From an uncultured delta proteobacterium (GTDB taxonomy: Bacteria > Myxococcota_A > Polyangia > Polyangiales > CAVUEK01), in contig CAVUEK010000006.1 in the NCBI GenBank assembly GCA_963740495.1, forward strand, positions 604,474 through 668,473: DNA of 64,000 bases. Direction: 5' to 3'. Under the pieces are notes generated by a model. That model was not told where the DNA came from. It did not search any database and saw only the letters and a program-made list of their open reading frames with translations. A program made the translations under genes and the position numbers. Below, piece by piece: positions 11,850 through 55,450 of the stretch; positions within the stretch are counted from its first letter, which is position 1, and the number at the start of each line of letters is the position of its first letter.

Positions 11850-11926
11850 GGCTCGGTCGCGTACCCCGCCGGAGACCGCGTGGCAAGCTGCTTGAGCCGA
11901 TCCGCGCGTCCGGCCCATCATGCGCC

Positions 11927-13163: not shown

Positions 13164-13219
13164 GCTTCGATCATAGATCGGGTCCGGTTACCATGGGCGC
13201 CCATGAAGGGTCGGGGAGG

Positions 13220-18384: not shown

Positions 18385-18391
18385 GGCGGCT

Positions 18392-19210
18392 CTACTTCGA
18401 CCGCATCCGATTCACGCGCGTGACGAGCGCCGTGAACGCAGACGGCGCGGTGCGCTTCACGCGCCACATCACCTGTCCGTCCATCATGGGCACCGCGTAG
18501 AGGCGATTCTTCGCGACCGCGGCGAGCGCCGCGCGAGCGACGTCGGGCGCCTGCACGCGGCTTCGGTCCATCATCTTGTGGACGAGGTCCTTCACCTTCG
18601 GGTCGTCGGTGCCACGCCCGCTCTCCGCGATGTTCGTCCGGAAGAACGTCGGGCAGAGCACCGTCGTGTGCACTCCGGTCCCGTCGAGCTCGGCGTGGAT
18701 CGTCTCGGTGAGCGCGACGACGCCCGCCTTCGTCACGTTGTACGGCGACATCTCGGGAAACGACATGAGGCCCGCGGCCGACGCCACGTTGATCACGTAG
18801 CCGCGGCCTCTCTCGATCATCTTCGGCACGACCACGTGGCACCCGTAGATCACGCCCCAGAGGTTGATGTCGACGATCCAGCGCCAGTCCTCGATCGAGA
18901 TGGCCTCGAACTTGCCGCCGACCGCGACGCCCGCGTTGTTGATCATCAGGTCCACGTCGCCGAACCAGCGCTCGGCCTCGCGGACGATCTCCTCGATGCG
19001 CCCGAGCGACGCGACGTCGCCGTGAAGCACGAGCGCCTCACCACCCCGGTCCCGGATGAGCGATGCCGTCTCTTCCGCGCCCTCGAGGCTCACGTCGACG
19101 ACCACTATCTTCGCGCCGAGCGCGCCGAGCTCGTTACAGAACGCTCGCCCGAGGCCGCTCCCTCCGCCCGTCACGATCGCGCGGGCGCCTCCGAATGCAT
19201 CGAGCTTCAT
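18392..19210 (-). CDS. Short-chain dehydrogenase/reductase (SDR) family oxidoreductase
   Basis: TGGGSGLGRA Rossmann motif, NNAG and YxxxK (YNVTK). Confidence 0.85.
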   Translation of the reverse strand: MKLDAFGGARAIVTGGGSGLGRAFCNELGALGAKIVVVDVSLEGAEETASLIRDRGGEALVLHGDVASLGRIEEIVREAERWFGDVDLMINNAGVAVGGKFEAISIEDWRWIVDINLWGVIYGCHVVVPKMIERGRGYVINVASAAGLMSFPEMSPYNVTKAGVVALTETIHAELDGTGVHTTVLCPTFFRTNIAESGRGTDDPKVKDLVHKMMDRSRVQAPDVARAALAAVAKNRLYAVPMMDGQVMWRVKRTAPSAFTALVTRVNRMRSK

Positions 19211-26868: not shown

Positions 26869-26877
26869 GACGCCCGC

Positions 26878-28998
26878 CTAGTCCGCGACCGCCGGAGCTC
26901 GAGCGCGCGTGAAGACCATCACGCGATCGGTGGCGAGGAGCCAGACGCGATCCTGCCCGTCGACCTCGACGTCGACGAGCTGGTTCGTCGGCAGGCCGTT
27001 CGATTCGTCGAGCGTCTGCCAGGTGTGCCCGTCGTAGTACACGACCCCGCGTTGTCCCGCCGCCCAGAGGTTGCCGCGCGAGTCGATCGCGAGCGCGGTC
27101 GGCCGCGCGTGCTGCACGAGCGCCGGCAGCTGGAAGTCGAAGCCCGTCGCGCTCTCCCAGAACCCGACGCCCTCCGCGGCGGCGACCCACACGCGTCCGC
27201 CTTCGCCCACGGCGACGTCGGACACGACCTCGCCGCGCACGCCCCGCGCTTCCCCGAAGACCACCGCTTGATGGTTGCCGACGCGGATGGCTCCGGTGAG
27301 GCTCGGCATCCAGGCATATCCGGCCATGCCGAGGTCGATGTTGTCCACCTCGTCGGGCATCGAGAGCGCTTCGGGCCCGTCGGTCTCGGGCGTCGCCCCG
27401 CGGCGGTGGTAGACGACGGGGCCTTCCTCGCCGAACACCGCGACCCCGCGCATGCGGGTCCCTTCACCGAGCTCGTGCGTCACGCGGAGCCCCGCCCACA
27501 CGACGCGATCGTCGGTGATACCGAAGAACGGGATCGAGACGAGCGGCGGCTCGACCGCGAGCTGCCGCTCCATCTGCTGAGTGTACCCGTCGGTGCTGAC
27601 GCGGTAGATGCGCACCGTCGCCGCTTGTCCTTCGACGAGACCGAGCACGTACGCGCCGTCCGGCCCGTTCGCGAGCGCCTGGAGCTTGACGCCGTCGGGC
27701 GAGGGCACGCGCTGGATGCGGCCGTCGCGGTAGAGCCCGATCGTCCCGTCGGCCGCGCGGACCCAGGTGTTGTGCGAGGCGTCGATCGCGATCTGCTCGT
27801 CGGTCGCGTCGACGAGGTCGAGGCTCCGGAGCACGGTCGAGAAGCCACCCGGTGTGATCCGGGCGACACCGCGGTTCTGATCGGCGAGAAAGAGGTCGTC
27901 GCCGCGCGCGCGAACGAGATACGCGGCGTCCGGGCGGACGGGCAGCGTGACCGCGCGGGCCCGAAGCTCCGGCGACGGAACGGCGGGCCGATCCGCCGGC
28001 ACGGGGGCGAGCGGGCTCGGCCGACGGGCGACCTCGGCCGGCGGCTCCGCGGGCCGCGTCGCGTACACCATCGGCAGATCCGCCGCCGCGAGGATGCGTG
28101 CTCCGTAGCTGCGCACGCCGCGCGGCTCGCCACGCTCGAGGCCGACGAGCTGCACCGAGCCCTCGAGCGGGCCCTTCACGATCTGGATCGCGTCGGCCGG
28201 CGTCACGAGCAGCGTGCGATCCTGGAAGCGAACGAGCCCGAGCGCGGGCGCGTCGAGCCCGTCGAGCGTGTAGGACCACCACCGCGTCCCGTCCCAGTAC
28301 CCGATCTTGGAGTCCGACGGTCCCTCTACGAGCGCGAGCGCTTCGCCGTCATCGAGCGGAACGAGCGAGCGCACGTAGCCTTCCGGAATGCCGCGACCGA
28401 GCGCGTGCTCGCGCACGACGTCGCCTTCGATGCGCCACGCGCCGCGCGTCGTCCCGACCCAGAGCGCGTCGGCGGCCGGCGCGAGCAGCGTCACCGCGGC
28501 CGGCTCGCCGAAGCGCGCCCAGGCGCCTTCGCGAAAGCGCGCGAGCCCCTCGGCGCCCCCGGCCCACAGCGTGCCGTCGTCCGTGAACGCGAGCGACGTG
28601 ACGCGTCCGACGGGCGGCGGATCGCCGAACGGCGCGACGGCCGCTTCCGCGTCGACGTGCGCGAGACCGCCCGCTGTCGCGACGACCACCCCGCCCGTGC
28701 GGTCGACCGCGACCGCGAGCGTGTCGTCCGACGGAAGCCCATCCGATGCGCGCACGCGCACTGGACGCTCTTCGCCAGCGGACGCGTGTACGAGCAGGCC
28801 GAGGTCGGTGGCGACGAAGACGCGCTCGGCGCTCGCGGCGACGTCCCGCACGGTGTCGAGGTCGGTGAAGGTCTCGACGACGCGAGCGCCGCCCCCGACC
28901 GTGACGAGCGTCCCCGCGGGCCCGCGCGTCGCCAGCCCGGCGGGCCCGCACGCGAGGAGGAGGACGAGGGTGCTGGAAAGCTCGAGGAGCCGGCGCAT
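26878..28998 (-). CDS. Lipoprotein with two-component-regulator-propeller-like (beta-propeller) repeats
   Basis: Lipobox LLLACG. Repeated LW.GT..GL..F/..W motifs over 706 aa. Stop 10 nt upstream of the kinase start. Confidence 0.65.
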   Translation of the reverse strand: MRRLLELSSTLVLLLACGPAGLATRGPAGTLVTVGGGARVVETFTDLDTVRDVAASAERVFVATDLGLLVHASAGEERPVRVRASDGLPSDDTLAVAVDRTGGVVVATAGGLAHVDAEAAVAPFGDPPPVGRVTSLAFTDDGTLWAGGAEGLARFREGAWARFGEPAAVTLLAPAADALWVGTTRGAWRIEGDVVREHALGRGIPEGYVRSLVPLDDGEALALVEGPSDSKIGYWDGTRWWSYTLDGLDAPALGLVRFQDRTLLVTPADAIQIVKGPLEGSVQLVGLERGEPRGVRSYGARILAAADLPMVYATRPAEPPAEVARRPSPLAPVPADRPAVPSPELRARAVTLPVRPDAAYLVRARGDDLFLADQNRGVARITPGGFSTVLRSLDLVDATDEQIAIDASHNTWVRAADGTIGLYRDGRIQRVPSPDGVKLQALANGPDGAYVLGLVEGQAATVRIYRVSTDGYTQQMERQLAVEPPLVSIPFFGITDDRVVWAGLRVTHELGEGTRMRGVAVFGEEGPVVYHRRGATPETDGPEALSMPDEVDNIDLGMAGYAWMPSLTGAIRVGNHQAVVFGEARGVRGEVVSDVAVGEGGRVWVAAAEGVGFWESATGFDFQLPALVQHARPTALAIDSRGNLWAAGQRGVVYYDGHTWQTLDESNGLPTNQLVDVEVDGQDRVWLLATDRVMVFTRARAPAVAD

Positions 28999-29082
28999 CT
29001 CGCGTGGTTAGCCCCGGGGCGCACCGGGTGTCAATCCGGGCGCCCGGTGCTACAAGAACAGGCCGCGCAGGGGGCACGACGG

Positions 29083-30750
29083 GTGAAGCAGCTCGAAGAC
29101 AGCTACGACACGGTGGTGATCGGCGCCGGGATGGGCGGCCTCGTGAGCGCCGCCTTGCTCGCGAAGGCCGGAATGTCGGTGTGCGTCGTCGACATGGGGA
29201 GCCGGCCGGGCGGCTATCTGATGGGGTTCGAGCGCAAGGGGTTCGTGTTCGACACCTCGACGCACTGGCTCAACGAGTGCAACCCCGGCGGCTCGGTGCG
29301 CAACGCGCTCGACCTGATCGGCCCGGGAGCGCCCGACATGCCGCGCCTCGAGCGGATCCGGCGCTACAAGAGCCCGAGCTTCGACTACACGCTCACCAAC
29401 GAGCCCGACGCGATGCGCGACGAGCTCGTGCGCGACTTCCCGAAGGACGAGCTCGGCATCCGGCGTTTCTTCGCCGAGGGCAAGCGGCTCGGCGAGATCA
29501 TGCAGATGCTCTCTCGCAGACAGCGAACGCACCTGACGATGGGGCCGTTCGAGAAGGCGTGGTTCGCGCTCCAGTCGATCCGCGGGCTCGCGCTCGCGCG
29601 TCACGCTCGCTCCGGCATGGACGCGGCGCTCGCTCGCTACTTCTCGCCGGACGGGCCCGGCAAGATCTACAGCTCCGAGCAGAACATCCTGTCGTGCCTC
29701 ATTCCGATCGGCTGGGCATACACCGGCGACTACCAACGTCCGCCCGACGGAGGCGCGAAGAAGCTCCCGCTCTGGCTGAGCTCGGTCCTGAGACAGTGGG
29801 GAGCGCCGCTCCACCTCAACTGCCGCGTCGAGAAGATCCACGTCGAGGACGGGCGTGCGGTCGGCGTGACGATCGCACGGATCCGCAGCGGCAAGACCTA
29901 CGACGTGAAGTGCAAGTACGTCGTCGCGGCGTGCGACGTCGCGTCCTTGTACGAGCACGCGCTCCCGCCCGGCAGCGTCGACTTCAGCTGGAAGAAGCGC
30001 TTCGACGACGCCGACCTCTACACGTCCACGTTCGCGATCAGCATGGGCCTCGACGTTCCCGTCACGGAGCTCGGCTTGGGCGAAGAGGTCGTCTACGTCA
30101 CCGCGGACGGCGTCGACCGCAAGGACCACAACGAGACCGACCCGCACAAGGCCGGCATCAGCGTCGTCGCCGGCTCCGCGCGCGACGCCTCGCTCGCCCC
30201 GCCTGGCAAGGGGACGCTCTCCCTGCAGGTCATGGCCGACATGAATTGGGGCGACTGCTGGAAGACGGGCCCCGGCTTCGAGCGCGGTCGAGCTTACGAG
30301 GCGTTCAAGAAAGAGTACGCGGACGTCCTCCTCGACCGCATCGAGCGGGTGCTCGTTCCCGATCTACGCAAGCACATCACTCTCCTCGACATCGCGACGC
30401 CGATCACGCACTGGCGCTACACCAACAACTACCAGGGCAGCATCATGGGCGCGAAGGCCACCGCGAGGAACTTTCGCAACGGCGTCTCCGGCTACTACAC
30501 GCCGATAAAGAACATGATCGTCGGCGGCCAGTGGGCCGAGAACGGCGGCGGCGTCCCCATCGCCGTCCGCGCCGGCTTCAACAGCGCGCTCCTGATCCTG
30601 AAGCGCGAACGCCCCGCCGCATTTCGTCTGTTCAGCCGCGTCATCGACGGCAAGCTCGCTCCGTCCGACTGCGTCGCAGAAGAGCTCCGCACCCTCACCG
30701 AGATCCGCCCCCGCCGCCCGCAGGGTAGCGCCGTCGCCACCGCGAGTTGA
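29083..30750 (+). CDS. FAD-dependent oxidoreductase, phytoene desaturase (CrtI/CrtD)-family
   Basis: N-terminal dinucleotide fold VVIGAGMGGLVSAALLAKAG. Family-typical C-terminal ...GGQW...G.P...SA. GTG start. Real gene is the tail of the 1593-aa shadow ORF. Confidence 0.75.
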   Translation: MKQLEDSYDTVVIGAGMGGLVSAALLAKAGMSVCVVDMGSRPGGYLMGFERKGFVFDTSTHWLNECNPGGSVRNALDLIGPGAPDMPRLERIRRYKSPSFDYTLTNEPDAMRDELVRDFPKDELGIRRFFAEGKRLGEIMQMLSRRQRTHLTMGPFEKAWFALQSIRGLALARHARSGMDAALARYFSPDGPGKIYSSEQNILSCLIPIGWAYTGDYQRPPDGGAKKLPLWLSSVLRQWGAPLHLNCRVEKIHVEDGRAVGVTIARIRSGKTYDVKCKYVVAACDVASLYEHALPPGSVDFSWKKRFDDADLYTSTFAISMGLDVPVTELGLGEEVVYVTADGVDRKDHNETDPHKAGISVVAGSARDASLAPPGKGTLSLQVMADMNWGDCWKTGPGFERGRAYEAFKKEYADVLLDRIERVLVPDLRKHITLLDIATPITHWRYTNNYQGSIMGAKATARNFRNGVSGYYTPIKNMIVGGQWAENGGGVPIAVRAGFNSALLILKRERPAAFRLFSRVIDGKLAPSDCVAEELRTLTEIRPRRPQGSAVATAS

Positions 30751-36390: not shown

Positions 36391-37551
36391 TCACGCGCTC
36401 GCGGGAGGCGTCGTGGACGGGTTGACCCGCGGCAGATCGATCGTGAACGACGTGCCGGTAGCCCCCGTCGAGACCGACACCTTGCCGCCGGCGCTCATCA
36501 CCATCTCGCGCACGATGGCGAGGCCGAGCCCGTCGCCGCCCGTCTTCGTCGTGAAGTGCGGGTCGAAGATGCGGCCGAGGTGCTCGGTCGGGATGCCGGG
36601 CCCGGAGTCGGTGACGCTGATCATCGCGCGATCGCCCATCTCGGCGACCTTGACCACGATCGACGCGACCTCCGGCCCCTGATCTTTCACCGCATGCGCG
36701 GCGTTGAGGAGGAGATTCATGACGACCTGCCCGAGGATCGACGCCTCCATGGGCACGCGGGGCGTTCCCTCGACGATGACCTGCAAGCGCGCGACCTTCT
36801 TGATCTCGGCGCGCAGGATGCGCGCGGTCGAATCGACGACCCGGTCGGCGGCGGAACGGGCAGGCGCAGAAGCGCGGATCTCGCCTTGCCTGAGCCGCTT
36901 CACCATGTCGATGAGCTGCTGCACGCCGGCCGCGCTGTCGGCGTGCGACTCGCGCGCCGACTCGAGCAGTGCGCGCGCGCGGGGCGCATCGCGCTCGACC
37001 GAATCGAGCGCCCCCTCGAGCGCGTGCGCGACCGAATGGACCGTCATCTCGAGCGCCTGTAGGAAGTTGCCCATCTCGTGCGCGATGCCGGCCTCGACGG
37101 TTCGCGCCGACGCGCCCTGCCCCGCCTGGAGCAGCCGCACCTCCATGTCGCGCACCGTGCGCTGGATGTGGACGAGCTCGACCCCCGTCCGCAGCACCTC
37201 GATCAACTCTTCGTTGCGGAACGGCTTCGTGACGTACCGCAGGACCTTGCCTCGATTGATCGCCTCGATCGCCGCATGCATGTCCGAGTGCGCGGTGATC
37301 AGGATGCGGATCGCTTCGGGGCGGATCTCCCGCGCCGCTTCGCAAACCTCGATGCCGGAGAGCCCGGGCATGCGCTGATCGCACATCAAGACGGCGATGT
37401 CCTCGCGCTCGTGGAGGATCCGCAGCGCCTCTTCGCCGTTCGTCGCAGTGATGAGCTCGAACGCGCGGTCGAGGATGTAGCGAACCGTGACGAGATTCCC
37501 CATCTCGTCGTCGACGTAGAGGATGGGGTAGTCCTTGTAGTCGATCGTCAT
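36391..37551 (-). CDS. Hybrid response-regulator receiver / histidine kinase (REC-HisKA-HATPase)
   Basis: REC: ILYVDDE..D..MPG..G...KPF. H-box IAHEMGNFLQ. N-box LLLNA. G-boxes DSGPGIP and GGDGLGL. Confidence 0.8.
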   Translation of the reverse strand: MTIDYKDYPILYVDDEMGNLVTVRYILDRAFELITATNGEEALRILHEREDIAVLMCDQRMPGLSGIEVCEAAREIRPEAIRILITAHSDMHAAIEAINRGKVLRYVTKPFRNEELIEVLRTGVELVHIQRTVRDMEVRLLQAGQGASARTVEAGIAHEMGNFLQALEMTVHSVAHALEGALDSVERDAPRARALLESARESHADSAAGVQQLIDMVKRLRQGEIRASAPARSAADRVVDSTARILRAEIKKVARLQVIVEGTPRVPMEASILGQVVMNLLLNAAHAVKDQGPEVASIVVKVAEMGDRAMISVTDSGPGIPTEHLGRIFDPHFTTKTGGDGLGLAIVREMVMSAGGKVSVSTGATGTSFTIDLPRVNPSTTPPASA

Positions 37552-37657: not shown

Positions 37658-39940
37658 ATGGGTCGTTCGTCGCAGCTCGACCGAGCGGCGCGGGAGCTCG
37701 CGCCGGCCGTCGTCGACGCCGGCGGTCAGCAAGCGAGGCTCGAGACGTACGTCGCAGCGATTCGAGGACGCGGACGGAGCCGAGCGCTCGTCCTCGCCCC
37801 GATCGCCACCGAGGGTCTGCCCAAGGAGATCGAGTGGGCGAAGGTCGTCGTGCTCGCCGCTGACGGCTTCATCCTGCACGCAACCCGCATCGAGGTCGGA
37901 CGCGGAGAGGTCTCGGTGCCTCTCCACGGCGCTCGGCTCACCCCCGCACCGCCCACGCGCCGGCTCACGGTCCGGCGTGCGCCTCGCGATCCGCGCATCC
38001 TCGTCGTGCCGTACGGCGGCGACGAAGTCGACCTCTATGCGTTCCCCGTGCTCGACCTCTCGCGCGACGGCTGCGCCATCGAAGCGTCGCACCCACTGGT
38101 CGCGGGCGCTCAGCTCCAGGGGGTCGAGCTCTGGGGGGACCGGCGGCTGCTGCGTCGCGCCATGGCGACCGTGCTCGAGACGATCCCGTGGCGTACGCCC
38201 GACGGCGATCGCCGCTTTCGCATGCGCCTCTCACTCGCGGAGATGCCCGATTCGTCTCCGCGCGCGAGCGACCGAGTGACCGATCCGACTCGCGTGCGGC
38301 GCATCCTCGAGCTGGCGGCGCTCGTGAGCACACGCGTATCGCTCGAGCTCGTGGGCGGAGCGCGCCTCAGCGGGCACCTCATCTCCGCCGAGTCGGACAA
38401 GCTCAGCGTGCGCGTCGACGAGCCGACGCTCGCGGCGGCCAGGCTGCAACTCGACTTCGAGCTCTTCGGCGTCAGCTACGCGATGGATGTGCGTGTCGTT
38501 CGGTGGTCGAGCGAGCAACGTCTCGTCACGCTCGCGTTCCCGCTCCATCTTCACCGCCGCCAGCGGCGCTATCAGTTCCGGGCCAGCGTGCCGGAAGAGA
38601 TCGCGCTCACGCTCGTCACTCACAATCCCGCGACGGGCGAGGTCATCACCCGCTCGCTGCTCGACCTCTCGTTCGGCGGCGCGAGCTTCGCCGTGGATCC
38701 GGAGAAGGACGTGCTGTGGCCCGGGCTCGCTCTGGAGGCAGGAAAAATCCTCTGGGCCGAGAGGGCCGTCGCCGTCGGCGAGCTCGAGGTCCGGAGCGTC
38801 GACGAGCAACGGATCTGCCGCGTGGAGATGCGCGCACCGACGACGGTCGACTCGCCCGCGTTCGTCGATCTCATGGCACGGTTGCGCTATCCGACGATGG
38901 AAGTGCACGACGGCGCGGACTTCGACGGGATGGTGAAGCTCTACGAAGAGGTCGGGCTCTTCGGCGCGCACATGACGCGCAATCTCCCTCCCGTTCGCGA
39001 CGCCGCGCGCGTCACGTGGAAGCGCATGCATGCCAGCGACCTCTGCCGCACGCTCGTGCAGCGAGAGGAAGGCCGCCTCGTCGCCGCGGTCTCGGCCGTG
39101 CGGGCGTGGGACCAATCCTGGGTGATCCAACACATGGTCGCCTCACCCGACCGGCGCATCCGGAAGCCGAGCGTGCTTCACATGGCGTATCTCGACCACA
39201 TCTTGCCACGCCCCGACGGTCGCTACATGGTCGTCTTCGTCAACACCGCCAACCGGCGTATCACGAGCTTCCTCGAGCGCTTCTTCGCGCTCACCGGAAC
39301 GCCCGAAGCGATCGCGCGCCGCGACATGAGCCTCTGGGTCGTGCGGGGCGGTCGCAAGCGCTCCGGCATCCTTCCGACCATCGGACTGTCGATTCGCTCG
39401 ATGCGCCAGGCCGACGAGCGCGCCGTCGGCAACGCAGCGGAGCGAATGTTTGGCCGCCTCGGAGCGGCCGCCCTCGCCCTTCGTGAAGGTGACTTCGCCA
39501 TCGAGGACACCCGCGCTCAGCTGCGTCGCCTCGGAGTACATCGGCAGCGCCGGAGCTCCCTCATCACCGACCGCGGCTACCCAATCCTCGCGCTCATCGA
39601 GGAGCAATCCGACCCCGGCCTCAACCTCACGTGGCTCCTGAACGCCACGTGGGTCCTGCCCATGCACCCCGAGCGCCGCGGCGCCGACGCGCTCCACCTG
39701 GCCGCCGCGCACATCCTCGGGCAGCCCGCGCAGACCGCCACCGGCGACCGATTCGCCTTACTGCCCGCCGAGATCGAGACCACCGCGTTCGAGCGCGCTG
39801 GCTTCGAGCACGAGGCCGAGGTCAGCGTCCACAGCTACAACCGCGCCGGCCTCCACCGCTGGTACTACTTCATCCGCGAAAGGCGGGACCCGTCGGGCTC
39901 GAGCGCTGAGCCGTCGACGCTGATCGCTCACGCCGGATGA
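37658..39940 (+). CDS. Multi-domain protein with two PilZ-like (c-di-GMP-binding) domains and C-terminal uncharacterised region
   Basis: RxxxR...DLSRDGCAIE and RSLLDLSFGGASFAV PilZ-type motifs. 760 aa. Confidence 0.55.
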   Translation: MGRSSQLDRAARELAPAVVDAGGQQARLETYVAAIRGRGRSRALVLAPIATEGLPKEIEWAKVVVLAADGFILHATRIEVGRGEVSVPLHGARLTPAPPTRRLTVRRAPRDPRILVVPYGGDEVDLYAFPVLDLSRDGCAIEASHPLVAGAQLQGVELWGDRRLLRRAMATVLETIPWRTPDGDRRFRMRLSLAEMPDSSPRASDRVTDPTRVRRILELAALVSTRVSLELVGGARLSGHLISAESDKLSVRVDEPTLAAARLQLDFELFGVSYAMDVRVVRWSSEQRLVTLAFPLHLHRRQRRYQFRASVPEEIALTLVTHNPATGEVITRSLLDLSFGGASFAVDPEKDVLWPGLALEAGKILWAERAVAVGELEVRSVDEQRICRVEMRAPTTVDSPAFVDLMARLRYPTMEVHDGADFDGMVKLYEEVGLFGAHMTRNLPPVRDAARVTWKRMHASDLCRTLVQREEGRLVAAVSAVRAWDQSWVIQHMVASPDRRIRKPSVLHMAYLDHILPRPDGRYMVVFVNTANRRITSFLERFFALTGTPEAIARRDMSLWVVRGGRKRSGILPTIGLSIRSMRQADERAVGNAAERMFGRLGAAALALREGDFAIEDTRAQLRRLGVHRQRRSSLITDRGYPILALIEEQSDPGLNLTWLLNATWVLPMHPERRGADALHLAAAHILGQPAQTATGDRFALLPAEIETTAFERAGFEHEAEVSVHSYNRAGLHRWYYFIRERRDPSGSSAEPSTLIAHAG

Positions 39941-40018
39941 GCCCACGACCGGATGTTCGGCTCGCCTCGTTGCTACTGTCGAATTGTCAGCTATATGGAC
40001 GAGCCTCGCGGACATTCG

Positions 40019-40798
40019 ATGGACGAGCGTTACGACCGCAACATCGGAGTTTGGACCGAAGCCTTCCAGGAACGGCTGTGGCGAGCGCGGGTAGGCATCG
40101 CCGGCAGCGGCGCCGCGGGCGAAGGTCTCTCGGACCTCCTCGCTCGCATGGGTGTCGGCTCGATCAAGATTGCAGATCCGGATCGCTTCGAGCGCACGAA
40201 CATCAACCGTCAAATCGACGCGTCCGAGCAGACCCTCGGCCGCAAGAAGGTCGACGTCGCGGCGGAACGGATCCGGGGGATCAACCCCGACATCGAAGTG
40301 GTCACCTACGACGAGGGCGTGACCGCAGAGAACATCGGAGACTTCCTCGACGGCTGCGACTTCGTCCACGAGGCCATCGACTACTCGGCCCCCGCCGCGA
40401 GATCCTCCTGCATCGAGAGGCTCGAAAGCGAGGGATTATCGCGACGACCTCGGCCGTCGTGGGTACCGGTTCGGTGCTCTTCGTTTTTCTATCCCGACGA
40501 GATGACGTACGAGGAGTACTTCCAGTACCCAGGTGACACGAAGACCTGGAAGCCCCCGCCAAATCGGATCATCGGGATCGAGCCCCCTCTTACCTCGACA
40601 AAGAGCGATTCCTGGGGCGAGTTGCGGTGGGCACGGTGCCCACGACGGCGCCGGGAGCTTGCCTCGCCGGATATCTCGCTGCCGTCGCCTACGTCAGCAT
40701 ACTCCAGGGACAACGCGTGCCTGGAGCTCCGAAGATGGTCCGCGTGGACCTCTGGGGGATGATAGGCGTGACCGTTTTCGACGCGGACGCGGCCAAAT
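40019..40798 (+). pseudogene. ThiF/MoeB-family E1-like adenylyltransferase, at least 3 frame disruptions (about 40395, about 40485, 40560-40640)
   Basis: RNIGVW...GIAGSGAAGEG...DPDRFERTNINRQ in frame +2. ARKRGIIATTSAVVGTGSVLFV in frame +1. C-terminal LAGYLAAVAYVSILQG...DLWGMIGVTVFDADAAK in the third frame ends at 40798. Confidence 0.6.
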
Positions 40799-41628
40799 GA
40801 GTGGCGTCACGCCACTCCACGCCCTCAGCGGACACTCGGGTCGCAGGCTCCTGAAGCTCGAGGGGCCAAACCCCACCGGCTCCATCAAGGACCGGCTCGC
40901 CGAACATCTGCTCACGACGGCCCGCGCGCGTGGCGAGTTGCACGCCGGTCAACCAATCGTCGAGGTCACGACCGGAAACACGGGGGTCGCGCTCGCGAGG
41001 GTCGCCCAACGCTTCGGTAGCCCGCTGGAGCTGATCGTCCCTGAGGGTCTGCCGGATGGCATCTTGTCGCGCCTGGCCCCATATCGGGCAACCGTGACGG
41101 TCATCGACCGGGAGGCTGGCGTGGAGGCCGCGATGCGTCTCGCGCACGAGAGGCGATTCCATGGCTACTACTGGCCCGACCAGTATGGAAACGCGGAATC
41201 GTCGCGGTCGTACGTGGGGCTCGCGAACGAGCTGCGGGTCCATCCCCGTGATAGACGAACTGTTCGCAGCGGTCGGTACGGGCGGGACGATCATGGGTGT
41301 CGGCCTCCACGTGCGGCGCCGCGATCCGCACGTGCGCATCGTCGCCGTCGAGTCATCCGAGATGGACATCGAGGGAATGCGAAATACCCGCATTGCGCAT
41401 CGTGGGAGTAGTGATCTCTACCAACTCGACTTCCCTGACGAGACCGTGCGCGTCACGAGGACGCAAGCGCAGGCGGGGCTCGACGCTCTCCGACGGGAAG
41501 GGATCACCGCGGGCTTGAGCTCTGGCGCGGTATTCCACGCTGCAACGCAGACGATGGCGCACGGAACGACCTCGGTGCTCGTGTCTGCGGATGGACGAGC
41601 AGAGTTGCCCGATCCCACGCGGAGCTGA
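40797..41628 (+). pseudogene. Cysteine synthase (CysK/CysM)-fold PLP-dependent enzyme, frame disruption at about 41240
   Basis: GSIKDR, TTGNTGVALA in frame 0. IPVIDELFAAVGTGGTIMGVG in frame +1. ATGA start overlap with the ThiF-like gene. Confidence 0.65.
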
Positions 41629-41634
41629 TTACTG

Positions 41635-42315
41635 ATGACAGCAAGCGACAACATCTGGACACGGTTCGCCGTCTCCTATGACCGAGTGCTCGGCAACTGG
41701 AGCGAATATCAGCGTCTTAGCGAGGAGATGCGTCGTCACTTACCCAAGAACGGCAAGATCCTCGACGTCGGCTGTGGGACAGGACTGATCGCGATTCCTC
41801 TCACCAAAGACGGCTGCGAGGTCCACGGCATCGACAACAACGACGAGATGCTTGCGCGCGCGCGGCTGAATGCGGGGTCTGCCCTCGGGACGTCGATGCA
41901 CCTGGACAACGGAGATGCCGAGGAGCTTGCCTTCGCGGACTCCTCGTTCGACGGTGTGATCGCAAACAACGTCATATTCTACGTAGCCAGCCCGGCGCGC
42001 ATGATTTCCGAGGTACGCAGAGTCCTGAAGCCCTCGGGCGTCTTCGCTGTCTCGGGACCGACGCCGCACCTGGACATGAGAAAGCTCATCGACCAGATCA
42101 CCCGGGAATTTCGGGAGAGAAACATTTACGACGAGCTCAAAGACGACCTCGAGCACTTCGTCGCGTGCAGCGCGCAGTTGAAAGCGACGGGAATGCCGAA
42201 CGTCTACTGGGCCGCGCAGCTCGAGGCTCTGCTTCTGGAGGCCGGCTTCGACGAAGTGCTGACGTCGCGTGAGGATCTCTATCTCGGAGAGAGCTACCTC
42301 GTCGTCGTGCGTTAG
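41635..42315 (+). CDS. Class I SAM-dependent methyltransferase
   Basis: ILDVGCGTGLIA motif I, acidic loop GIDNNDEM, motif post-I DGVIANNV. Low GC. Confidence 0.75.
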   Translation: MTASDNIWTRFAVSYDRVLGNWSEYQRLSEEMRRHLPKNGKILDVGCGTGLIAIPLTKDGCEVHGIDNNDEMLARARLNAGSALGTSMHLDNGDAEELAFADSSFDGVIANNVIFYVASPARMISEVRRVLKPSGVFAVSGPTPHLDMRKLIDQITREFRERNIYDELKDDLEHFVACSAQLKATGMPNVYWAAQLEALLLEAGFDEVLTSREDLYLGESYLVVVR

Positions 42316-42317
42316 AC

Positions 42318-43973
42318 CTAGGTCGAGCCTTGCACGTGCTCGACGCTGGGTGACATCGACCGCAAATAGTCGTAGTGCTGAGGCATCGCGGAAGCGATCT
42401 CGGCGCTCCGGACCGCTAACTGGGCGAGGGCGCGCTCTCCCATCTCGAAGCCGAGGTGATCGAGCAGCGGGTATGGTCGGCGCGGCAAGCGGTCATACCC
42501 GTCCAAAATGCAGGTGTAGCTGAACGCCGGGAACACGCGCAGCCTCAGCTCGTCGAACACGGGCAATTCGACTCGAAGAGCTCCAGTTTCTCTTGGAGAG
42601 TCGGGGGTAGCTCCACGGAACGTGCTGCCGTCCAGAACTCCGAGTTCGTCCGCTGCGAGAGGACATAGTGCATCACGATGAAATCACGAATGTCTTCGTA
42701 CATCTCGCGCACCGTCTCGTTGTACTTTCGGATTCGTCCGGAGTCGAACGCGAGAGAAGGAAACAACGTCAGAAGAGTGGCCAGCCCGTATTCGATCAGA
42801 AAGATGCCGGTCGACTCGAGTGGCTCGAGGAACGAGGCCGACAAGCCAATGGCGACGCAGTTCTTGACCCACCGAATTTCCTCGTCCGCCCGATTCGCAT
42901 CGGGATGTGCCTCGCATCCGTGTCGGACGCGCGGGGTCCGAGGAACGCCCGCAGCTCTTGCTCCGCGCCTTCTCTTGAAAGCGCACCGCTGCTGTATACG
43001 TAGCCACAGCCGTTGCGGTGCATCAGGGAACGTCCCAGGCCCAGCCGGCGGTCAGAGCAGTGGACGTCGTGTACGGGGCGATCCCATCTCGGTCGGGGTC
43101 GTTCGTTGCTGGTAGCGCAACCGCGGCATCACACAACAGCACATTGCTGTCGCTCAGGAAGGGTTCTTGGAGCGTTCGCTGCAGCAGAGCACCGCGAAAC
43201 CCAGTGCAGTCGATGAAGAGGTCGCCTTCCACATTGGCGCCTCCTTTAGTGTGCAGCGCCTTGATGAAACCCCGCTCATCGAGCTCCACGGAAGTGACAT
43301 CGTCCACCACGTGACTGACACCGCGCTCGATCGCGAGCCCGCGGAGCAACCGCGCCAGGGCGACCGCATCGAAATGATATGCGGTGCTCTGATTCATGTC
43401 CGGATTGCTCGGATGAATGGGCGACTTTCGCGCCATGCAGAGTGCGACGTTCGGCGCGATCATCTCGGCCAGCGATTGCGACGCGCCTTCGAGCCGGCGA
43501 CGATGAGCATAGTGAAGAAGCGAAACGCGCGTACCGATCTGCTGGAAGTACGGACGCTCGAATGGAAGTACCGCAGGCTCGGGGCGTTGCGTGAACGGAT
43601 GCCAGAAGTGGTCGTCGGTCTTTCGGGCGGGATCGACCCAATCCACGAACTTGATCGCTGCCTTATATGTCGCACCCACCTTTGGCATCCACTCCGCGTC
43701 CGCGAGGCCGATGAAGCCGAGCGTCGTCCTGAGAGTCGGGATCGTCGCCTCCCCCACCCCCACTCCTGGAATGTCCTTAGACTCGACTAACGTGATCGCG
43801 ATCGACTCGCCCAGGGCCCTTTGCAGATAGGTCGCCGATAGCCAGCCCGCGGTTCCGCCGCCGACTATCACGATTCGCTCGATCCGACCGTCCATCACTC
43901 GCGGATAGCCGACAACATGTGCGTTCGCAAGGGCGCTGAGTACGCGTAGGGTTGCAGAGGCTTCGTACGGCAC
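42318..43973 (-). pseudogene. Flavin-dependent tryptophan-halogenase-family protein, at least 3 frame disruptions (about 43015, about 42850, about 42555)
   Basis: GGGTAGW and GEATIP in ORF 43023..43973. GYVYSSGALSREGAEQEL in ORF 42796..43023. SFLEPLESTGIF in ORF 42545..42844. C-terminus in ORF 42318..42566. Confidence 0.7.
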
Positions 43974-44029
43974 ATGCCTTTTCGACGTGTGCTTGGAGTA
44001 TCTTCATCGAGCGATATCGCGAGTCTAGG

Positions 44030-46819
44030 ATGGCCCCGCCCGCGACCGAAGACGTGCTTCAACCTCAGCTTCACAGCTACGCTGTGGGAAGCGTCTTGGA
44101 TGTCGCCGAGGAGGCCTTTGGTAAGTCCTGGGTCGATGGATGGCTCGATGAGTGGGGCGTGGACCTGCGGAGCTTGATCTCGTCGCAGGGATGGATCTCC
44201 TGGGAGTTCGGCGAGCGGGTGCTCGCGCGCCTGGCGGCGGAGAGCAGCCCCGAACAGATCACGCGTATCGGGAGTCTCATCATGTCGCCCAAGCACATGG
44301 GGGCGATCTACCCGTTCCTCAGGAGCTTCGGCACGCCGCTTTTCACGTATCGAAGAATCGTCGCTTCGACACCTCGCTTCAACAAGGTCCAGACGTGGGA
44401 GCTCGAGGAGCGCGGCCGAACGACACTGAGAATCGCGGCGCGCAGGCTGCTCGACATCGAGCGAACCGACACCGCCCACATGTGCGAAGTCGCTCGCGCG
44501 CAGATGGCCGCGGTCCCCGTGCTCTTCGATTTGCCGCCGGCGAAGGTCGTGCACACGAGCTGCTACCACCGTGGGGACGAGCAGTGCATCTACGACATCG
44601 AGTGGCAGGAGCCGTCGTCGCGGCTGTCGCTCTGGCTGCTGTTGTTCGGTGGCGCCGCGGCGGGCGTCGGGCTCGGGTGGGCGCTCGGGGCGGCGCTTCC
44701 GCTGCTCGTCACGCTGAGCGTTTGCAGCGGGCTCGCGACGTGGGCGACCGTGCTCGCGTATCGACAGCGGCTCGACATCGCGGACCGAGTGGCGGACATC
44801 CAGGACCATCACGACGCGCTGTCGCGCAGCGTGCGCGACAACGAGAAACGCTTCGAGGAGCTGATCGCGGCGAAGCGCGAGGTGGACCAGAAGGTGGAGG
44901 AGCGCACGCTCGAGCTCGCGCAGACGCTCGACGAGGTTCGCGCGCTCGACGAAGCGAAGACAGAATTCTTCTCGAACGTGTCGCACGAGCTGCGGACGCC
45001 ACTGACTCTCTTGATCGCGCCGCTCGAGGACATCACCTCCGGTCGCGAGCCACCGGGAGGGCGCGACGCGGCGTTGGCGTCGATGAAGCGCAACGCGGCG
45101 CGTCTGCTCACGATGATCAACCAGCTGCTCGAGCTGGCGAAGATCGACGCGGGCAGCGCGACCCTCGACAGGCGGGCCGTGGTACCGGGCACCGTCGCGC
45201 GACGCGTCGCGGACGCGTTCCACTCGTCCGCGGCCCGCCGGGGGATCGAGCTCTCGGTCGTCGCTCCCGAGCACGGCAACCCGGTCGCTCTCGACCCGGA
45301 CCGGGTCGACTCGGCGCTCACGAATCTCGTGGCGAACGCGCTTCGCTTCACGCCGAGCGGCGGCCACGTCGTGATTCGCGTGACGGACCAAGGCGGCGAG
45401 GTCGTGTTCGCCGTCGAGGACGACGGCAGCGGGGTGCCGGCGGAGGATCTGCCGCGTCTGTTCGAGCGCTTCTCGCAGTCGGGCTCGAGCACGGAGCGGC
45501 GCGGGGGCACCGGTCTCGGCCTCGCCCTCGTGCGCGAGACCGCGCGGCTCCACGGCGGAGAGGTCACGGCACAGAGCGACCCTGGCAAGCGAACCGTGTT
45601 CGAGCTCCGAATGCCGCGGGTCGTCGCAACCGGCGCGATTGCGCCTGACGAGCCTACCGACCACGCCCCGGACGTCGGCGAGCAGTTGCCCACCAGCCGC
45701 GACCCGAGCGAGTTGACGCGCAGCGGTCCGAGGCCATCGGCGCCCATCGCGCTCGTCGTCGAGGACAACGCGGATCTGCGCGCTCTGCTCGCGGACGTAT
45801 TGGCCGCACGGTTTCGCGTCACGGGTGTCGCCGATGCAGAGAGCGCGCTCGCGAAGGCGAAGCTGCTCCAGCCGGACGTGATCGTGTCCGACATCGCGAT
45901 GGAGCGAATGACGGGAATCGAGCTCACGCGTGCCTTGCGCAAGCTCGACGCGACGAGGACGACGCCGATCATTCTCGTGACCGCCCGCGGAGACACCCAG
46001 ACCGTGCTCGAAGGGTTCGACGCGGGTGCAGACGACTATCTGACGAAGCCGTTCCACGGCCGCGAGCTCCTCGCCCGCGTGGACGTCCAACTGCGCGTGC
46101 GGCAGATGCTGCAGCACCTCGCGCACCAGGAACGCCTCGCCGCGCTCGGCATGGTCGCGGCCTCGGTCGCGCACAACGTGAGAAACGCGCTGATCCCCCT
46201 GACCAGCGGTCTGCCGGCTGTGCGCGCTCGGATCACCGCCAAGCTCGACGCACCGACGGAGGAGATGTTCGACGTGATGCAGGAGAGCGCGGCCCGTATC
46301 GAGAGGCTCTCGACAGACTTGCTCGACCTGTCGCGCATCGACCGCGTGTCGTTCGGGCGCTTCGAGCCAGGCCGCGGTCTCACGGCGTCCGTCCGGCTCG
46401 TGGCCGCGAAGCTACCGGCCAGTGTCCGCGTGTCGACCGACGTCGACGAGACCTCGGTGATCTGGGGCCGCGCCGGCGACATGAACCACGTGTTCCTCAA
46501 CCTGATCGACAACGCCGCGCGAGCGGTAGGCGCAAAAGGGGAGATCCGTGTGCTCGGCCGCCGCCTCGACGGGGAGTACGTCGTCGACGTGTCGGACTCG
46601 GGCGAGGGCGTCGACCCCGCGCTGGTCGAGCGGATCTTCGATCCGTTCGTGACGACGCGCGCCATCGGCGAGGGAACCGGCCTGGGCCTCGCGATCGCGC
46701 GCGACGTCGTCGAGCAGCACAAGGGCACGATCGCGATCAGCCGGTCCGAGCTCGGCGGCGCGCAGTTCACGATCCGGCTGCCGGTCAGCACAGCGGCGGG
46801 AGACGAAGCGCGCAGCTGA
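44030..46819 (+). CDS. Large hybrid sensor histidine kinase (sensor-HisKA-HATPase-REC-HisKA-HATPase)
   Basis: H-boxes SHELRTPL and VAHNVRNAL. Two G-box sets. Central REC (IALVVEDNADLR...DIAMERMTG..KPF). Confidence 0.8.
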   Translation: MAPPATEDVLQPQLHSYAVGSVLDVAEEAFGKSWVDGWLDEWGVDLRSLISSQGWISWEFGERVLARLAAESSPEQITRIGSLIMSPKHMGAIYPFLRSFGTPLFTYRRIVASTPRFNKVQTWELEERGRTTLRIAARRLLDIERTDTAHMCEVARAQMAAVPVLFDLPPAKVVHTSCYHRGDEQCIYDIEWQEPSSRLSLWLLLFGGAAAGVGLGWALGAALPLLVTLSVCSGLATWATVLAYRQRLDIADRVADIQDHHDALSRSVRDNEKRFEELIAAKREVDQKVEERTLELAQTLDEVRALDEAKTEFFSNVSHELRTPLTLLIAPLEDITSGREPPGGRDAALASMKRNAARLLTMINQLLELAKIDAGSATLDRRAVVPGTVARRVADAFHSSAARRGIELSVVAPEHGNPVALDPDRVDSALTNLVANALRFTPSGGHVVIRVTDQGGEVVFAVEDDGSGVPAEDLPRLFERFSQSGSSTERRGGTGLGLALVRETARLHGGEVTAQSDPGKRTVFELRMPRVVATGAIAPDEPTDHAPDVGEQLPTSRDPSELTRSGPRPSAPIALVVEDNADLRALLADVLAARFRVTGVADAESALAKAKLLQPDVIVSDIAMERMTGIELTRALRKLDATRTTPIILVTARGDTQTVLEGFDAGADDYLTKPFHGRELLARVDVQLRVRQMLQHLAHQERLAALGMVAASVAHNVRNALIPLTSGLPAVRARITAKLDAPTEEMFDVMQESAARIERLSTDLLDLSRIDRVSFGRFEPGRGLTASVRLVAAKLPASVRVSTDVDETSVIWGRAGDMNHVFLNLIDNAARAVGAKGEIRVLGRRLDGEYVVDVSDSGEGVDPALVERIFDPFVTTRAIGEGTGLGLAIARDVVEQHKGTIAISRSELGGAQFTIRLPVSTAAGDEARS

Positions 46820-46991: not shown

Positions 46992-48146
46992 ATGATCGAC
47001 TATCGCGCTTACCCCGTTCTGTACGTCGACGATGAGCGCGCCAATCTCGTAGCCGTACGCTACGCGCTCGACGGAATGTTCGAGCTGCTCACGGCTTCGA
47101 ACGGAGAGGAAGCGCTGCGGCTCCTCGCCGAGAACTCCGCGATCGCCGTGCTCCTCTGCGACCAGCGCATGCCGGGGATGGACGGCGTCTCCGTGTGCGA
47201 GGCAGCCCGCCGCGTTCGGCCGGACGCGATTCGGATCATGATCTCGGCTTACGCAGATCTTCACGCCGCGATCGATGCCATCAACCGCGGTCAGGTGTCG
47301 CGCTACGTTCGCAAGCCGTTTCAGAACGAGGACCTCGTCGAGATCCTGCGCACCGCGATCGAGCTCGTGCACATCCAGCGAACGCTCCAAGACATGGAGG
47401 TTCGCCTGCTGCGTGTCGGCCAGAATCCGAGCGGCGCAGCTGTCGAAGCCGATGTGACCGACGAGCTCGCGCGTCTCGTCGGAGAGCTCCGGCTGAAGGC
47501 GGAGCGTTCGTCCGCTCTCGCGGGCGCCGCCGCGCTGAGCCTCGACGAGAGCCCCCCGCGCCCTCGGGAGATCCTCGACGAGATCGCCGAAGTGGCCAAC
47601 GACACGAGCTCGTTGGCTCGTCAGCTCGAGGACTTGGTCGAGCGCCTACGCCAAGCAGAGGCGGAAAGCTCACCCGATGCGTACTGCTTCGTCGACCGCG
47701 TCGTCGAGTCGACGACCGGCATCCTCCGGCCGGAGGTCCAGCGCGTGGCCCGCCTCCGCGTGATCTCCGAGAGCTCACCCCGCGTTCGGATGGACCCGTC
47801 GGTGCTCGGCCAGGTCCTCACGAACCTCTTGCTCAACGCGGCGCAGGCGCTTCACGGACGCTCTCGCGACGACGCCAGCATCACCGTTCACGTCGCCGAG
47901 CAGAACGGCCGTGCCCTTCTCACCGTGAGCGACGATGGGCCGAGCGTCCCACCCGAGCTCGCCGCTCTCGTGCTCGACTCGTCCGTCTCTGGAACGGACG
48001 GCGGAAGCGGCCTCGGCCTGACGGTCGTCCGGGAGATGGTGGCCCGTGCCGGCGGGACGGTGAACGTCGCGTCGAGCGCCGGCGGGACGACGTTCACGGT
48101 GGACCTGCCGCTCCGGCAATCGACGAGCCCCCCGCCGCCCCGGTGA
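46992..48146 (+). CDS. Hybrid REC / histidine-kinase-like ATPase protein, paralog of 36391..37551
   Basis: N-terminus MIDYRAYPVLYVDDE... about 65% identical over 140 aa to the 36391..37551 protein. HATPase motifs LLLNAAQA, DDGPSVP, GGSGLGL. Confidence 0.8.
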   Translation: MIDYRAYPVLYVDDERANLVAVRYALDGMFELLTASNGEEALRLLAENSAIAVLLCDQRMPGMDGVSVCEAARRVRPDAIRIMISAYADLHAAIDAINRGQVSRYVRKPFQNEDLVEILRTAIELVHIQRTLQDMEVRLLRVGQNPSGAAVEADVTDELARLVGELRLKAERSSALAGAAALSLDESPPRPREILDEIAEVANDTSSLARQLEDLVERLRQAEAESSPDAYCFVDRVVESTTGILRPEVQRVARLRVISESSPRVRMDPSVLGQVLTNLLLNAAQALHGRSRDDASITVHVAEQNGRALLTVSDDGPSVPPELAALVLDSSVSGTDGGSGLGLTVVREMVARAGGTVNVASSAGGTTFTVDLPLRQSTSPPPPR

Positions 48147-54498: not shown

Positions 54499-55450
54499 TC
54501 AGGCTTCGCTGCCATCCCGACGTCGCTCGAGCCAATCGAGCACCCGCGCCTCGACGTTGATTCCCGTGAGACGGGACATCTGCTGTATTCCCGTAGGGCT
54601 CGTGACGTTCACCTCGGTCAGGTAGCGGCCGATGACGTCGATGCCGGCGAACCACAGACCGTCGGCTCGCAGGCGCGGCGCGATGTGGGCGCAGATCTCG
54701 CGATCGCGGTCGGAGAGCTCGCACGCCACCACTCTGCCGCCGACGTGGATGTTGCTCCTCACGTCGCCTCCGCTCGGGATCCGCAGGATGATCCCGATCG
54801 GCTCGCCGTCGACCAGGAGAATGCGCTTGTCGCCCTCGGCGACCTCCGGGAACGAGCTCCTGAAGCACCGCGACCCGCGTCCCGTTCCGCGTGACGGTCT
54901 CGACGATCGCGTTGAAGTTCCCGTCGTTCGCACGAAGCGCGAAGACGCTCTGCCCGCCGTGACCGTCGACCGGCTTCAGGATCGCCTGTCCGCCCATCTC
55001 GCCGACCAGCGAGCGGATCCGCTTCTTGTCCGAGGTGACCACCGTGCGCGGCATCAGCTCGGGGAACCAATGCGTGTAGAGCTTCTCGTTCGCCTCGCGC
55101 AGCCCGCGAGGGTCGTTCACGACGAGGGTCTTGCCGCGCAGATGCTCGAGGACGAGCGTCAACCAGAGGTATTCGTCGTCGAACGGCGGATCCTTGCGCA
55201 CGAAGACGACATCGACCTCGGAGAGGTCCACCTCGACCGCGTCGCCGAGCGCAATCGGGTCGCGCGCGTCGCGCTTCATCGTCGCTCGGCGGACGACCGC
55301 CTTCGGTCGGTCGACGTCGAGCAAGACATCGCGCAAGAGACAGTGATCGACGCGATGACCTCGCGCCTGTGCTTCGAGCATCAGCGCGAACGACGTGTCC
55401 TCGTCGACGGCCACGGTCGAGGGCGGGTCCATGACGAACACGATGTGCAT
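54499..55450 (-). pseudogene. gshB: Glutathione synthetase (ATP-grasp), 1-nt insertion at about 54848
   Basis: N-terminus MHIVFVMDP..SSFALMLEAQARGH. C-terminal ORF 54499..54933 [13 protein letters not shown]...[11 protein letters not shown] in a shifted frame. Confidence 0.75.

Follow-up and report, generated by a model that had tools for sequence, protein, structure and literature searches.

A lower-GC insert between conserved signalling genes of a Myxococcota contig combines a carrier-less ThiF-like gene cassette with a convergent tryptophan-halogenase gene

The DNA analysed here is a 64 kb window of contig CAVUEK010000006.1 from an uncultured delta proteobacterium, and all positions are those of this window. 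Between two conserved flanking genes it contains a lower-GC island with four enzyme genes. Three of these lie in one direction and encode a ThiF-like adenylating enzyme, a CysK/CysM-like pyridoxal phosphate (PLP) enzyme and an S-adenosylmethionine (SAM)-dependent methyltransferase, while the fourth, a flavin-dependent tryptophan-halogenase gene, converges on them (Table 1). The four enzyme names, first given in a reading of the bare sequence that is called here the original prediction, are correct by Pfam. The guanine plus cytosine (GC) content of positions 39941-44026 is 62.3% as against 70.8% for the remaining window, and the island is the lowest-GC of all 4.1 kb windows (z = -7.1; non-overlapping windows have a mean of 0.708, a standard deviation of 0.012 and a minimum of 0.682). 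GC at third codon positions (GC3) is 0.69-0.85 in the coding pieces of the island as against 0.86-0.88 in the two flanking genes. Sliding-window GC and GC3 thus bear out the lower-GC island that had been proposed, and its description as a non-housekeeping segment, acquired or exchangeable, is upheld by this foreign composition and by related metagenome-assembled genomes (MAGs) that carry other genes between the same syntenic flanks. The 5' end of the histidine-kinase gene on the right (44030-44400) has a GC content of 0.61-0.65, below the rest of that gene, and the exchanged tract may extend slightly into this flank.

Table 1. Positions of the island, its genes and frame breaks, the flanking genes, other features of the window, and the loci of other genomes (L labels) compared with them. 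PALP and MT denote the PLP-enzyme and methyltransferase genes.
Feature	Positions	Strand	Remarks
Lower-GC island	39941-44029		occupies the variable slot between two conserved flanking genes
TTGCTA-16-TATATG motif	39970-39997	+	in sequence; promoter function unsupported
ThiF-like (E1-superfamily) adenylating enzyme	40016-40800	+	Pfam ThiF PF00899, 1.6e-32; about 255-260 residues repaired
ThiF-like break	40389-40393	+	C5 run, -1
ThiF-like break	40484-40488	+	T5 run, +1
ThiF-like break	40583-40587	+	C5 run, -1
CysK/CysM-like fold-type II PLP beta-replacement enzyme	40797-41628	+	Pfam PALP, two pieces (3.9e-26, 7.6e-13); about 276 residues repaired
PLP-enzyme break	41244-41247	+	C4 run, +1 or -2
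Class I SAM-dependent methyltransferase	41635-42315	+	226 residues, intact; Pfam Methyltransf_11 (3.2e-26), Methyltransf_25, Methyltransf_31
Flavin-dependent tryptophan-halogenase family gene	42318-43895	-	Pfam Trp_halogenase PF04820; 526 residues repaired
Halogenase break	43026-43028	-	GGG, -1
Halogenase break	42868-42873	-	short runs, -1 or +2
Halogenase break	42565-42568	-	short runs, -1
Divergent intergenic region, halogenase start/kinase start	43896-44029		read from sequence; no Rfam match
Receiver-HATPase protein	36391-37551	-	part of conserved signalling module
PilZ-PilZ-tandem-GNAT protein, left flank	37658-39940	+	760 residues; conserved in relatives
Hybrid histidine kinase, right flank	44030-46819	+	HisKA-HATPase-receiver-HisKA-HATPase by Pfam; reading frame also open from TTG at 43952
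Second receiver-HATPase paralog	46992-48146	+	part of conserved signalling module
HMG-CoA reductase, frame split	8650-9888, break about 9395-9405	+	NKGI/MNGVD, extra G in ATCGATG
OPT oligopeptide transporter, two frame changes about 40 nt apart	9911-11921, breaks about 10975 and 11010	-	one at a G5 run
Glutathione synthetase, one frame change	about 54500-55450, break about 54845	-	between N-terminal part and rest of ATP-grasp domain
Candidate frameshifts	about 22055, 50513, 51614, 52951, 62903, 63376		candidates from a GC-periodicity frame switch on same strand
L001/L004 slot	L001 10001-15003		Trp halogenase (57% identical), P450, ASMT-like Methyltransf_2 O-methyltransferase, JmjC cupin
L001, desaturase past the kinase	18165-19169		
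L002 slot	12327-15085		second-type flavin halogenase (PF04820, GWFWYIP) and fatty-acid desaturase
L003 slot	12274-14006		desaturase and uncharacterised 252-residue protein
L005 slot			empty
L006			ThiF-PALP-MT; bacterium of 69% GC
L007, L011, L012, L013			GNAT-ThiF-PALP-MT and convergent V4R gene; contigs of 39% GC
L008, L015, L016, L017			GNAT-ThiF-MT with V4R, KaiC-like ATPase and 99-residue genes; archaeal contigs by aIF2-alpha, TrmB, Hjc
V4R-side stretch of archaeal-type loci	L008 7423-9083; L015 8456-10129; L016 5428-7100; L007 7840-8481; L011 4605-5252		
FeeM-like/ThiF-like pair beside HD-domain gene, Halalkalibacter and Alkalibacterium	L009 6396-7765; L019 3396-4759		

The three co-directional genes are tightly packed. 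The ThiF-like and PLP-enzyme genes share the ATGA at 40797-40800, and only 6 nt (41629-41634) separate the PLP-enzyme gene from the methyltransferase gene; both details had been reported in the original prediction and are seen in the sequence. The stop codons of the convergent methyltransferase and halogenase genes are 2 nt apart (42315 and 42318). A promoter had also been proposed ahead of the ThiF-like gene, TTGCTA-16-TATATG at 39975-40003. The motif exists, with its position shifted to that of Table 1; a consensus scan for promoters and terminators gave site counts at the level of shuffled sequence and did not list this motif among its sites. Around the island, the signatures of mobile elements amount to short repeats at chance level, with no tRNA, integrase, Rfam family or insertion sequence.

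The ThiF-like protein contains a ThiF-type ATP-binding Rossmann domain. Its frame breaks were placed by tblastn with an intact ortholog (L006/P0124), and the conceptually repaired protein can be aligned with its homologs over the full length (alignment A2). The best NCBIfam match is PRK08223 (full length, 175 bits), with PRK14851 and PRK14852 also at the top, all three being uncharacterised families. Scores fall below the NCBIfam equivalog cutoffs for ThiF (87 bits against 275), MoeB (66 against 377) and MoeZ (52 against 647), and the Rv1355c family gives 62 bits with a cutoff of 476. Alignment A2 of the ThiF clade includes no CxxC zinc motif, no conserved loop cysteine, and no rhodanese or extra domain, and its sole invariant cysteine sits in GCDF. 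A predicted structural model (predicted local distance difference test, pLDDT, 80) is matched almost equally by AclA, MoeB, PaaA, MccB and E1 enzymes, so the predicted fold does not fix the mechanism of the enzyme. The absence of an adjoining ThiS/CysO-like carrier, noted in the original prediction, was confirmed on a wider scale: among reading frames of 50-130 residues ending in GG, neither the 64 kb window nor eight cassette loci (including L006-L008, L011, L013, L015 and L016) gave a credible ThiS/MoaD/CysO-like carrier. The cassette loci are those of six close ThiF relatives together with six from a metagenome scan.

The repaired PLP enzyme possesses GSIKDR with the PLP Schiff-base lysine, the Asn loop TTGNTG, the phosphate loop GTGGT, and SSGA. 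In the PDB it comes closest to CysK and CysM (E about 1e-30 to 1e-28), while its NCBIfam scores stay under the cutoffs of cysKM (148 bits against 344), CysM (137 against 413), CysK (117 against 351) and SbnA (124 against 350). It is a divergent, short branch of the CysK/CysM/SbnA group with a shorter C-terminus. The methyltransferase shares 37-46% identity with its counterparts in the cassette loci, and the exact protein was found in a public protein collection. Conserved columns are kept at 75 of 88 in the PLP enzyme and at 40 of 43 in the methyltransferase, both inside the span seen among intact orthologs. Housekeeping genes of cysteine, molybdopterin or thiamine metabolism that stand beside a halogenase by chance would carry the same Pfam names, which hold at family level only; this explanation is hardly credible given ThiF, MoeB, CysK and CysM scores far under the equivalog cutoffs, the foreign composition, the lack of these genes from that position in each of the four related genomes and fewer than ten close relatives in 5.8 billion proteins.

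The halogenase gene scores against the Pfam family in three pieces (3.2e-77, 1.3e-05 and 3.6e-28), with a further C-terminal piece unscored, and three frame breaks interrupt what would be a frame of about 520 residues. The repaired protein has Trp 5-halogenase 8fov as its best PDB match (E = 6.6e-118), followed by PrnA, PyrH, Thal and RebH. The GxGxxG motif for binding of flavin adenine dinucleotide (FAD) is contained in IVIVGGGTAGW, which opens the piece 43895-43023. The WxWxIP motif appears as GWAWDVP, with a conservative change of Ile to Val, and aligns with GWIWTIP of 8fov and GWTWNIP of the L001 halogenase. The segments with the catalytic Lys and Glu, ATYKAAIKF and SFLEPLESTGI, align with those of solved Trp halogenases, the catalytic pair being K79 and E346 in PrnA numbering. 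GGGTAGW, GEATIP and SFLEPLESTGI, the motifs named in the original prediction, are all present, and on alignment neither the WxWxIP nor the FAD motif is lacking. Of 115 columns conserved to at least 90% among 39 homologs the repaired halogenase keeps 113, which is mid-range for intact proteins. Its nearest homolog (P0002, 57% identity) is encoded in the same slot of a relative, L001/L004.

The genes on both sides of the island belong to a signalling module, composed of a receiver-HATPase protein, the PilZ-PilZ-tandem-GNAT protein, the hybrid kinase and a receiver-HATPase paralog, that recurs in parts in four Myxococcota MAGs. Orthologs of the flanks in these four Myxococcota-type MAGs (L001-L005) are 35-56% identical on the left and 43-63% on the right. 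In the left-flank protein both PilZ domains keep the motifs for cyclic di-GMP (c-di-GMP), RRAPR...DLSRDG and RRQRR...DLSFGG. Its C-terminal half is a tandem GNAT that was found by fold search only, being invisible to Pfam and NCBIfam, and its gene ends 75 nt upstream of the ThiF-like gene. The slot between the flanks has a different content in every relative compared. The relatives carry their slot genes in the orientation of the PilZ-GNAT gene and close behind it, overlapping it by 4 nt in L003 and leaving 59 nt in L002 and 106 nt in L001; halogenases and lipid desaturases recur downstream of it. These slot genes (desaturase, P450, O-methyltransferase, cupin and the second halogenase type) were sought in the window by tblastn, and none was found there.

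A search of 5.8 billion proteins gave only six protein clusters close to the repaired ThiF-like protein (51-57% identity, 255-265 residues), and the next tier reaches at most 42%. A unit of the ThiF-PALP-MT type recurs in about ten other loci, none with a halogenase. In archaea the gene immediately ahead of the ThiF gene encodes a tandem GNAT, and in five archaeal-type loci the two genes share 4-23 nt. In two Firmicutes a gene for a FeeM-type N-acyl amino acid synthase overlaps a ThiF-like gene of 252-254 codons by 1 nt; this FeeM-like/ThiF-like pair (L009, L019) resembles OxzA/TyzB and has no nitroreductase partner. Locus L010 has a GNAT gene directly after the ThiF gene, and on a Rhodococcus plasmid only IS256 stands between the genes of a GNAT N-acyltransferase and a ThiF protein. 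In archaeal-type loci a convergent V4R gene always comes next after GNAT-ThiF-(PALP)-MT, and is followed in three of them by a KaiC-like ATPase and a conserved protein of 99 residues. No description of a cassette of ThiF, a CysK-like enzyme and a methyltransferase was found in the literature. To our knowledge, and in the literature searched, both the ThiF-PALP-MT cassette and the PilZ-GNAT variable slot are undescribed, all of their domains being known.

This distribution bears on the proposal that the island is a single acquired thiocarboxylate cassette, similar to CysO/CysM/MoeZ or HcyS/HcyF, in which the CysK-like enzyme would build a sulfur amino acid that is then methylated and halogenated. 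The shared ATGA indicates translational coupling of the ThiF- and CysK/CysM-family genes, and the top PDB and NCBIfam matches of the PLP enzyme include CysM, an enzyme that depends on a thiocarboxylate in mycobacteria. Such a cassette nevertheless seems unlikely. The window and the eight cassette loci have no GG-terminated beta-grasp carrier, and there is no JAMM protease, rhodanese domain, CxxC zinc site or catalytic cysteine loop; four loci have ThiF-MT with no adjoining cassette-type PALP; both enzymes lie far under the equivalog cutoffs; and the cassette has no halogenase elsewhere, while the nearest halogenase relative keeps other partners. The thio-modification suggested in the original prediction was drawn from the analogy with E1 and CysK, and the tests for a carrier, zinc or cysteine motifs, rhodanese and equivalog membership all came out negative. 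Its further idea of one cassette for a halogenated or thio-modified product fails as well, for ThiF-PALP-MT recurs with no halogenase and the nearest halogenase is accompanied by a P450, an O-methyltransferase and a cupin.

Instead, we interpret the island as an exchangeable insert of two independent modules that includes small-molecule ThiF chemistry, an overall explanation to which we give a probability of about 0.45. Two modules rather than a single pathway are indicated because ThiF-PALP-MT occurs elsewhere with no halogenase and the halogenase relative has other partners. The first module would be the operon of the ThiF-like enzyme, the CysK-like PLP enzyme and the SAM methyltransferase; the second, the convergent Trp-halogenase gene, would act separately on tryptophan or an indole. 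The ThiF-like enzyme is proposed to adenylate a small-molecule carboxylate with no sulfur-carrier protein, because its clade is recurrently coupled to genes of GNATs or N-acyl amino acid synthases. The tandem-GNAT gene 75 nt upstream also points to activation of an N-acyl amino acid, and the most plausible substrate would be an N-acylated amino acid from this neighbouring GNAT-type acyltransferase, with cyclisation or transfer as the outcome, on the model of TyzB, OxzB and TrzS. A beta-substituted alanine-type amino acid may be supplied or modified by the CysK-like enzyme, and the methyltransferase may methylate the product. The composition, the gene identities, where the frames break, the synteny with its variable slot, the recurring cassette, the missing carrier and the GNAT fold of the left flank are observed here, and from them we infer the substrates, the chemistry and the link of the cassette to the flanking GNAT.

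Several observations weigh against this explanation. The cassette is uncharacterised in every member. The PilZ-GNAT gene is kept in relatives that have no ThiF gene; its adjacency here could be coincidental. Comparison of the PilZ-GNAT family by hhalign with the archaeal GNAT (A4) and FeeM (A5) gave no similarity (probability below 1%). In L006 the trio has no nearby GNAT, which means that the GNAT link is not obligatory. Neither the island nor any cassette locus has a nitroreductase or a flavin-dependent oxidase, the partner seen in oxazolone pathways.

A more far-reaching version, which we consider doubtful, is that the PilZ-PilZ-tandem-GNAT protein acts as an amino-acid N-acyltransferase gated by c-di-GMP, that the slot is a plug-in site for genes tailoring a lipid or signal built on an N-acyl aromatic amino acid, and that ThiF-PALP-MT performs a new oxazolone-related ThiF chemistry with no flavin oxidase. 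The locus also suggests that, in Myxococcota, exchangeable tailoring genes follow an acyltransferase that binds a second messenger, which would connect c-di-GMP signalling with the making of specialised lipids or signals.

Comparison by tblastn with intact orthologs locates exactly seven frame changes in the island, three in the ThiF-like gene, one in the PALP gene and three in the halogenase gene, in agreement with the original count of seven or more in about 4 kb. All seven are taken as changes of +/-1 nt. Aligned with their orthologs, the island genes have no nonsense codons, no deletions longer than 2 nt and no insertion elements, and after conceptual repair each broken protein can be aligned with its homologs over its full length. 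Frame breaks are also found outside the island, where the Pfam domains of the HMG-CoA reductase, the OPT transporter and the glutathione synthetase are split, and this shows the assembly to be prone to indels. The split HMG-CoA reductase gene is the last of a mevalonate operon (about 4.5-9.9 kb) with GHMP kinases and diphosphomevalonate decarboxylase, which suggests that its frameshift is an assembly error. Further candidate frameshifts were nominated where the GC-periodicity frame switches although the previous frame continues without a stop for over 130 nt, and are clumped at about 50.5-53.0 kb and 62.9-63.4 kb. The GC-frame hidden Markov model called the island non-coding and gave some false segments, and was used only for this nomination. 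The origin from a contig of 1.07 Mb suggests that the source assembly is a long-read MAG. One close relative is a Microflora Danica-type MAG.

The seven breaks lie in genes that otherwise look selected, and are somewhat likelier to be local consensus errors of an indel-prone long-read assembly than very recent pseudogenisation; error is slightly favoured because there is no excess of substitutions at conserved positions. Strain heterogeneity at a variable locus, for instance, could lower the local quality of the consensus. Against this explanation stand a break density of 1.7 per kb in the island as against 0.07-0.17 per kb elsewhere in the window, an equal density of homopolymers in island and flanks, and the retention by the window ThiF of only 66 of 88 columns invariant in its relatives, where the other high-GC ortholog keeps 66 of 71, which could come from relaxed constraint. 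The same figures count for the competing explanation, namely that the island is truly decaying, its function having been lost after acquisition and seven independent indels fixed in three of the four genes. The breaks are 10-25 times as dense as in the rest of the window and are roughly proportional to gene length, no other member of the clade departs as far as the window ThiF from otherwise invariant positions, and gene turnover is frequent in variable slots. We give decay a considerable chance, short of even odds. The lack of nonsense mutations, longer deletions and insertion sequences speaks against it, and the conservation of the repaired halogenase, PALP and methyltransferase, at the level of intact homologs, is unexpected given the neutral time needed for seven indels; an assembly that also splits HMG-CoA reductase, glutathione synthetase and, twice, the OPT transporter points to consensus errors. 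The decay suggested in the original prediction is thus not established, as other genes of the assembly are broken too and the repaired halogenase keeps its conserved residues. In this assembly, frame breaks alone are no proof of pseudogenisation unless the reads are inspected.

The wider neighbourhood in the window consists of signalling genes, a radical-SAM gene and an AraC regulator, with no polyketide synthase or nonribosomal peptide synthetase. A plus-strand reading frame of 1593 codons at 25969-30750 has Pfam support only for residues 1046-1541. It was rejected as one intact gene, being at least partly a shadow reading frame, since GC periodicity favours minus-strand genes at about 25.5-29.0 kb; a plus-strand amine-oxidase gene is indicated at about 29.0-30.7 kb. 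ARAGORN reports a tRNA-Thr(CGT) of 92 nt at 6536-6627 on the plus strand, inside the coding region of the mevalonate operon, and this is probably a false positive.

Compared with known systems, the island halogenase is similar to PrnA, RebH, PyrH, Thal and 8fov in full-length alignment (E about 1e-118 to 1e-94) with its motifs kept. It differs from halogenases of the PrnA/RebH type by the three frame breaks in the assembled sequence, and has no adjoining flavin reductase or known indole-alkaloid cluster. With CysO-CysM-MoeZ (Mec+) and HcyS/HcyF/MetY the island shares an E1-family gene beside a gene for a fold-type II (or related) PLP beta-replacement enzyme. It differs in having no carrier, JAMM protease, rhodanese or zinc/cysteine motifs, and several cassette loci do without the PLP gene.

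Systems of the microcin C type (MccB, MccD, MccE) also bring together ThiF, the SAM-methyltransferase fold, a PLP enzyme and GNAT superfamilies. MccE combines a PLP decarboxylase with a GNAT, whereas the island PLP enzyme is of fold-type II and no decarboxylase. MccB matches the island ThiF over the core only: its N-terminal peptide-clamp (RRE-like) domain is absent from the island protein of about 255 residues, which starts straight at the RYDRNIG Rossmann segment. A precursor peptide, as an MccB-type system would have, was not found. The tRNA ct6A dehydratase TcdA is likewise a small stand-alone ATP-dependent cyclodehydratase of the ThiF family with no carrier. It is very unlikely that the ThiF-like enzyme is a TcdA-type cyclodehydratase of tRNA bases, with the methyltransferase, GNAT and PLP enzyme serving RNA modification. 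Sequence and fold place the island protein no nearer to TcdA than to ThiF, MoeB or E1, the cassette is very rare and patchy in distribution, unlike a tRNA-modification system, and the wider clade partners FeeM-type N-acyl amino acid synthases, which are small-molecule enzymes.

The closest precedents are systems in which an N-acyltransferase is paired with a ThiF cyclase whose substrates are N-acyl-Tyr, -Phe or -Trp (PMC12596934, PMC10404671, PMC12856293, bioRxiv 10.1101/2020.06.11.147165). According to a 2025 review, no ThiF-like enzyme other than the oxazolone synthetase OxzB, which acts on N-acyl-tyrosine from OxzA, is known to have a small-molecule substrate (PMC12596934). In M. tuberculosis, acyl-tyrazolones are made by the N-acyltransferase TyzA, the stand-alone ThiF homolog and ATP-dependent cyclase TyzB and the flavin oxidase TyzC, and cysK1 and cysE flank the tyz cluster (PMC10404671). 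N-acyl tryptazolones are made from tryptophan by TrzA and TrzS (PMC12856293). Like OxzA/OxzB of Pseudoalteromonas rubra, TyzABC and TrzA/TrzS, the island has a ThiF gene with no ubiquitin-like carrier, here next to the gene of a putative GNAT-type N-acyltransferase, and its ThiF is stand-alone like TyzB; the tandem GNATs here have no detectable sequence similarity to FeeM. The known substrates of these systems are N-acyl-Tyr, -Phe and -Trp, and the island holds a Trp halogenase. Unlike the ThiF-PALP-MT cassette, oxz, tyz and trz have no integral CysK-like enzyme and methyltransferase, and they possess a nitroreductase or flavin-oxidase partner that the island and cassette loci do not. The carrier-less cassette of ThiF-like enzyme, CysK-like enzyme and methyltransferase, usually coupled to a tandem GNAT, would be a candidate for a second small-molecule ThiF chemistry after oxazolone formation.

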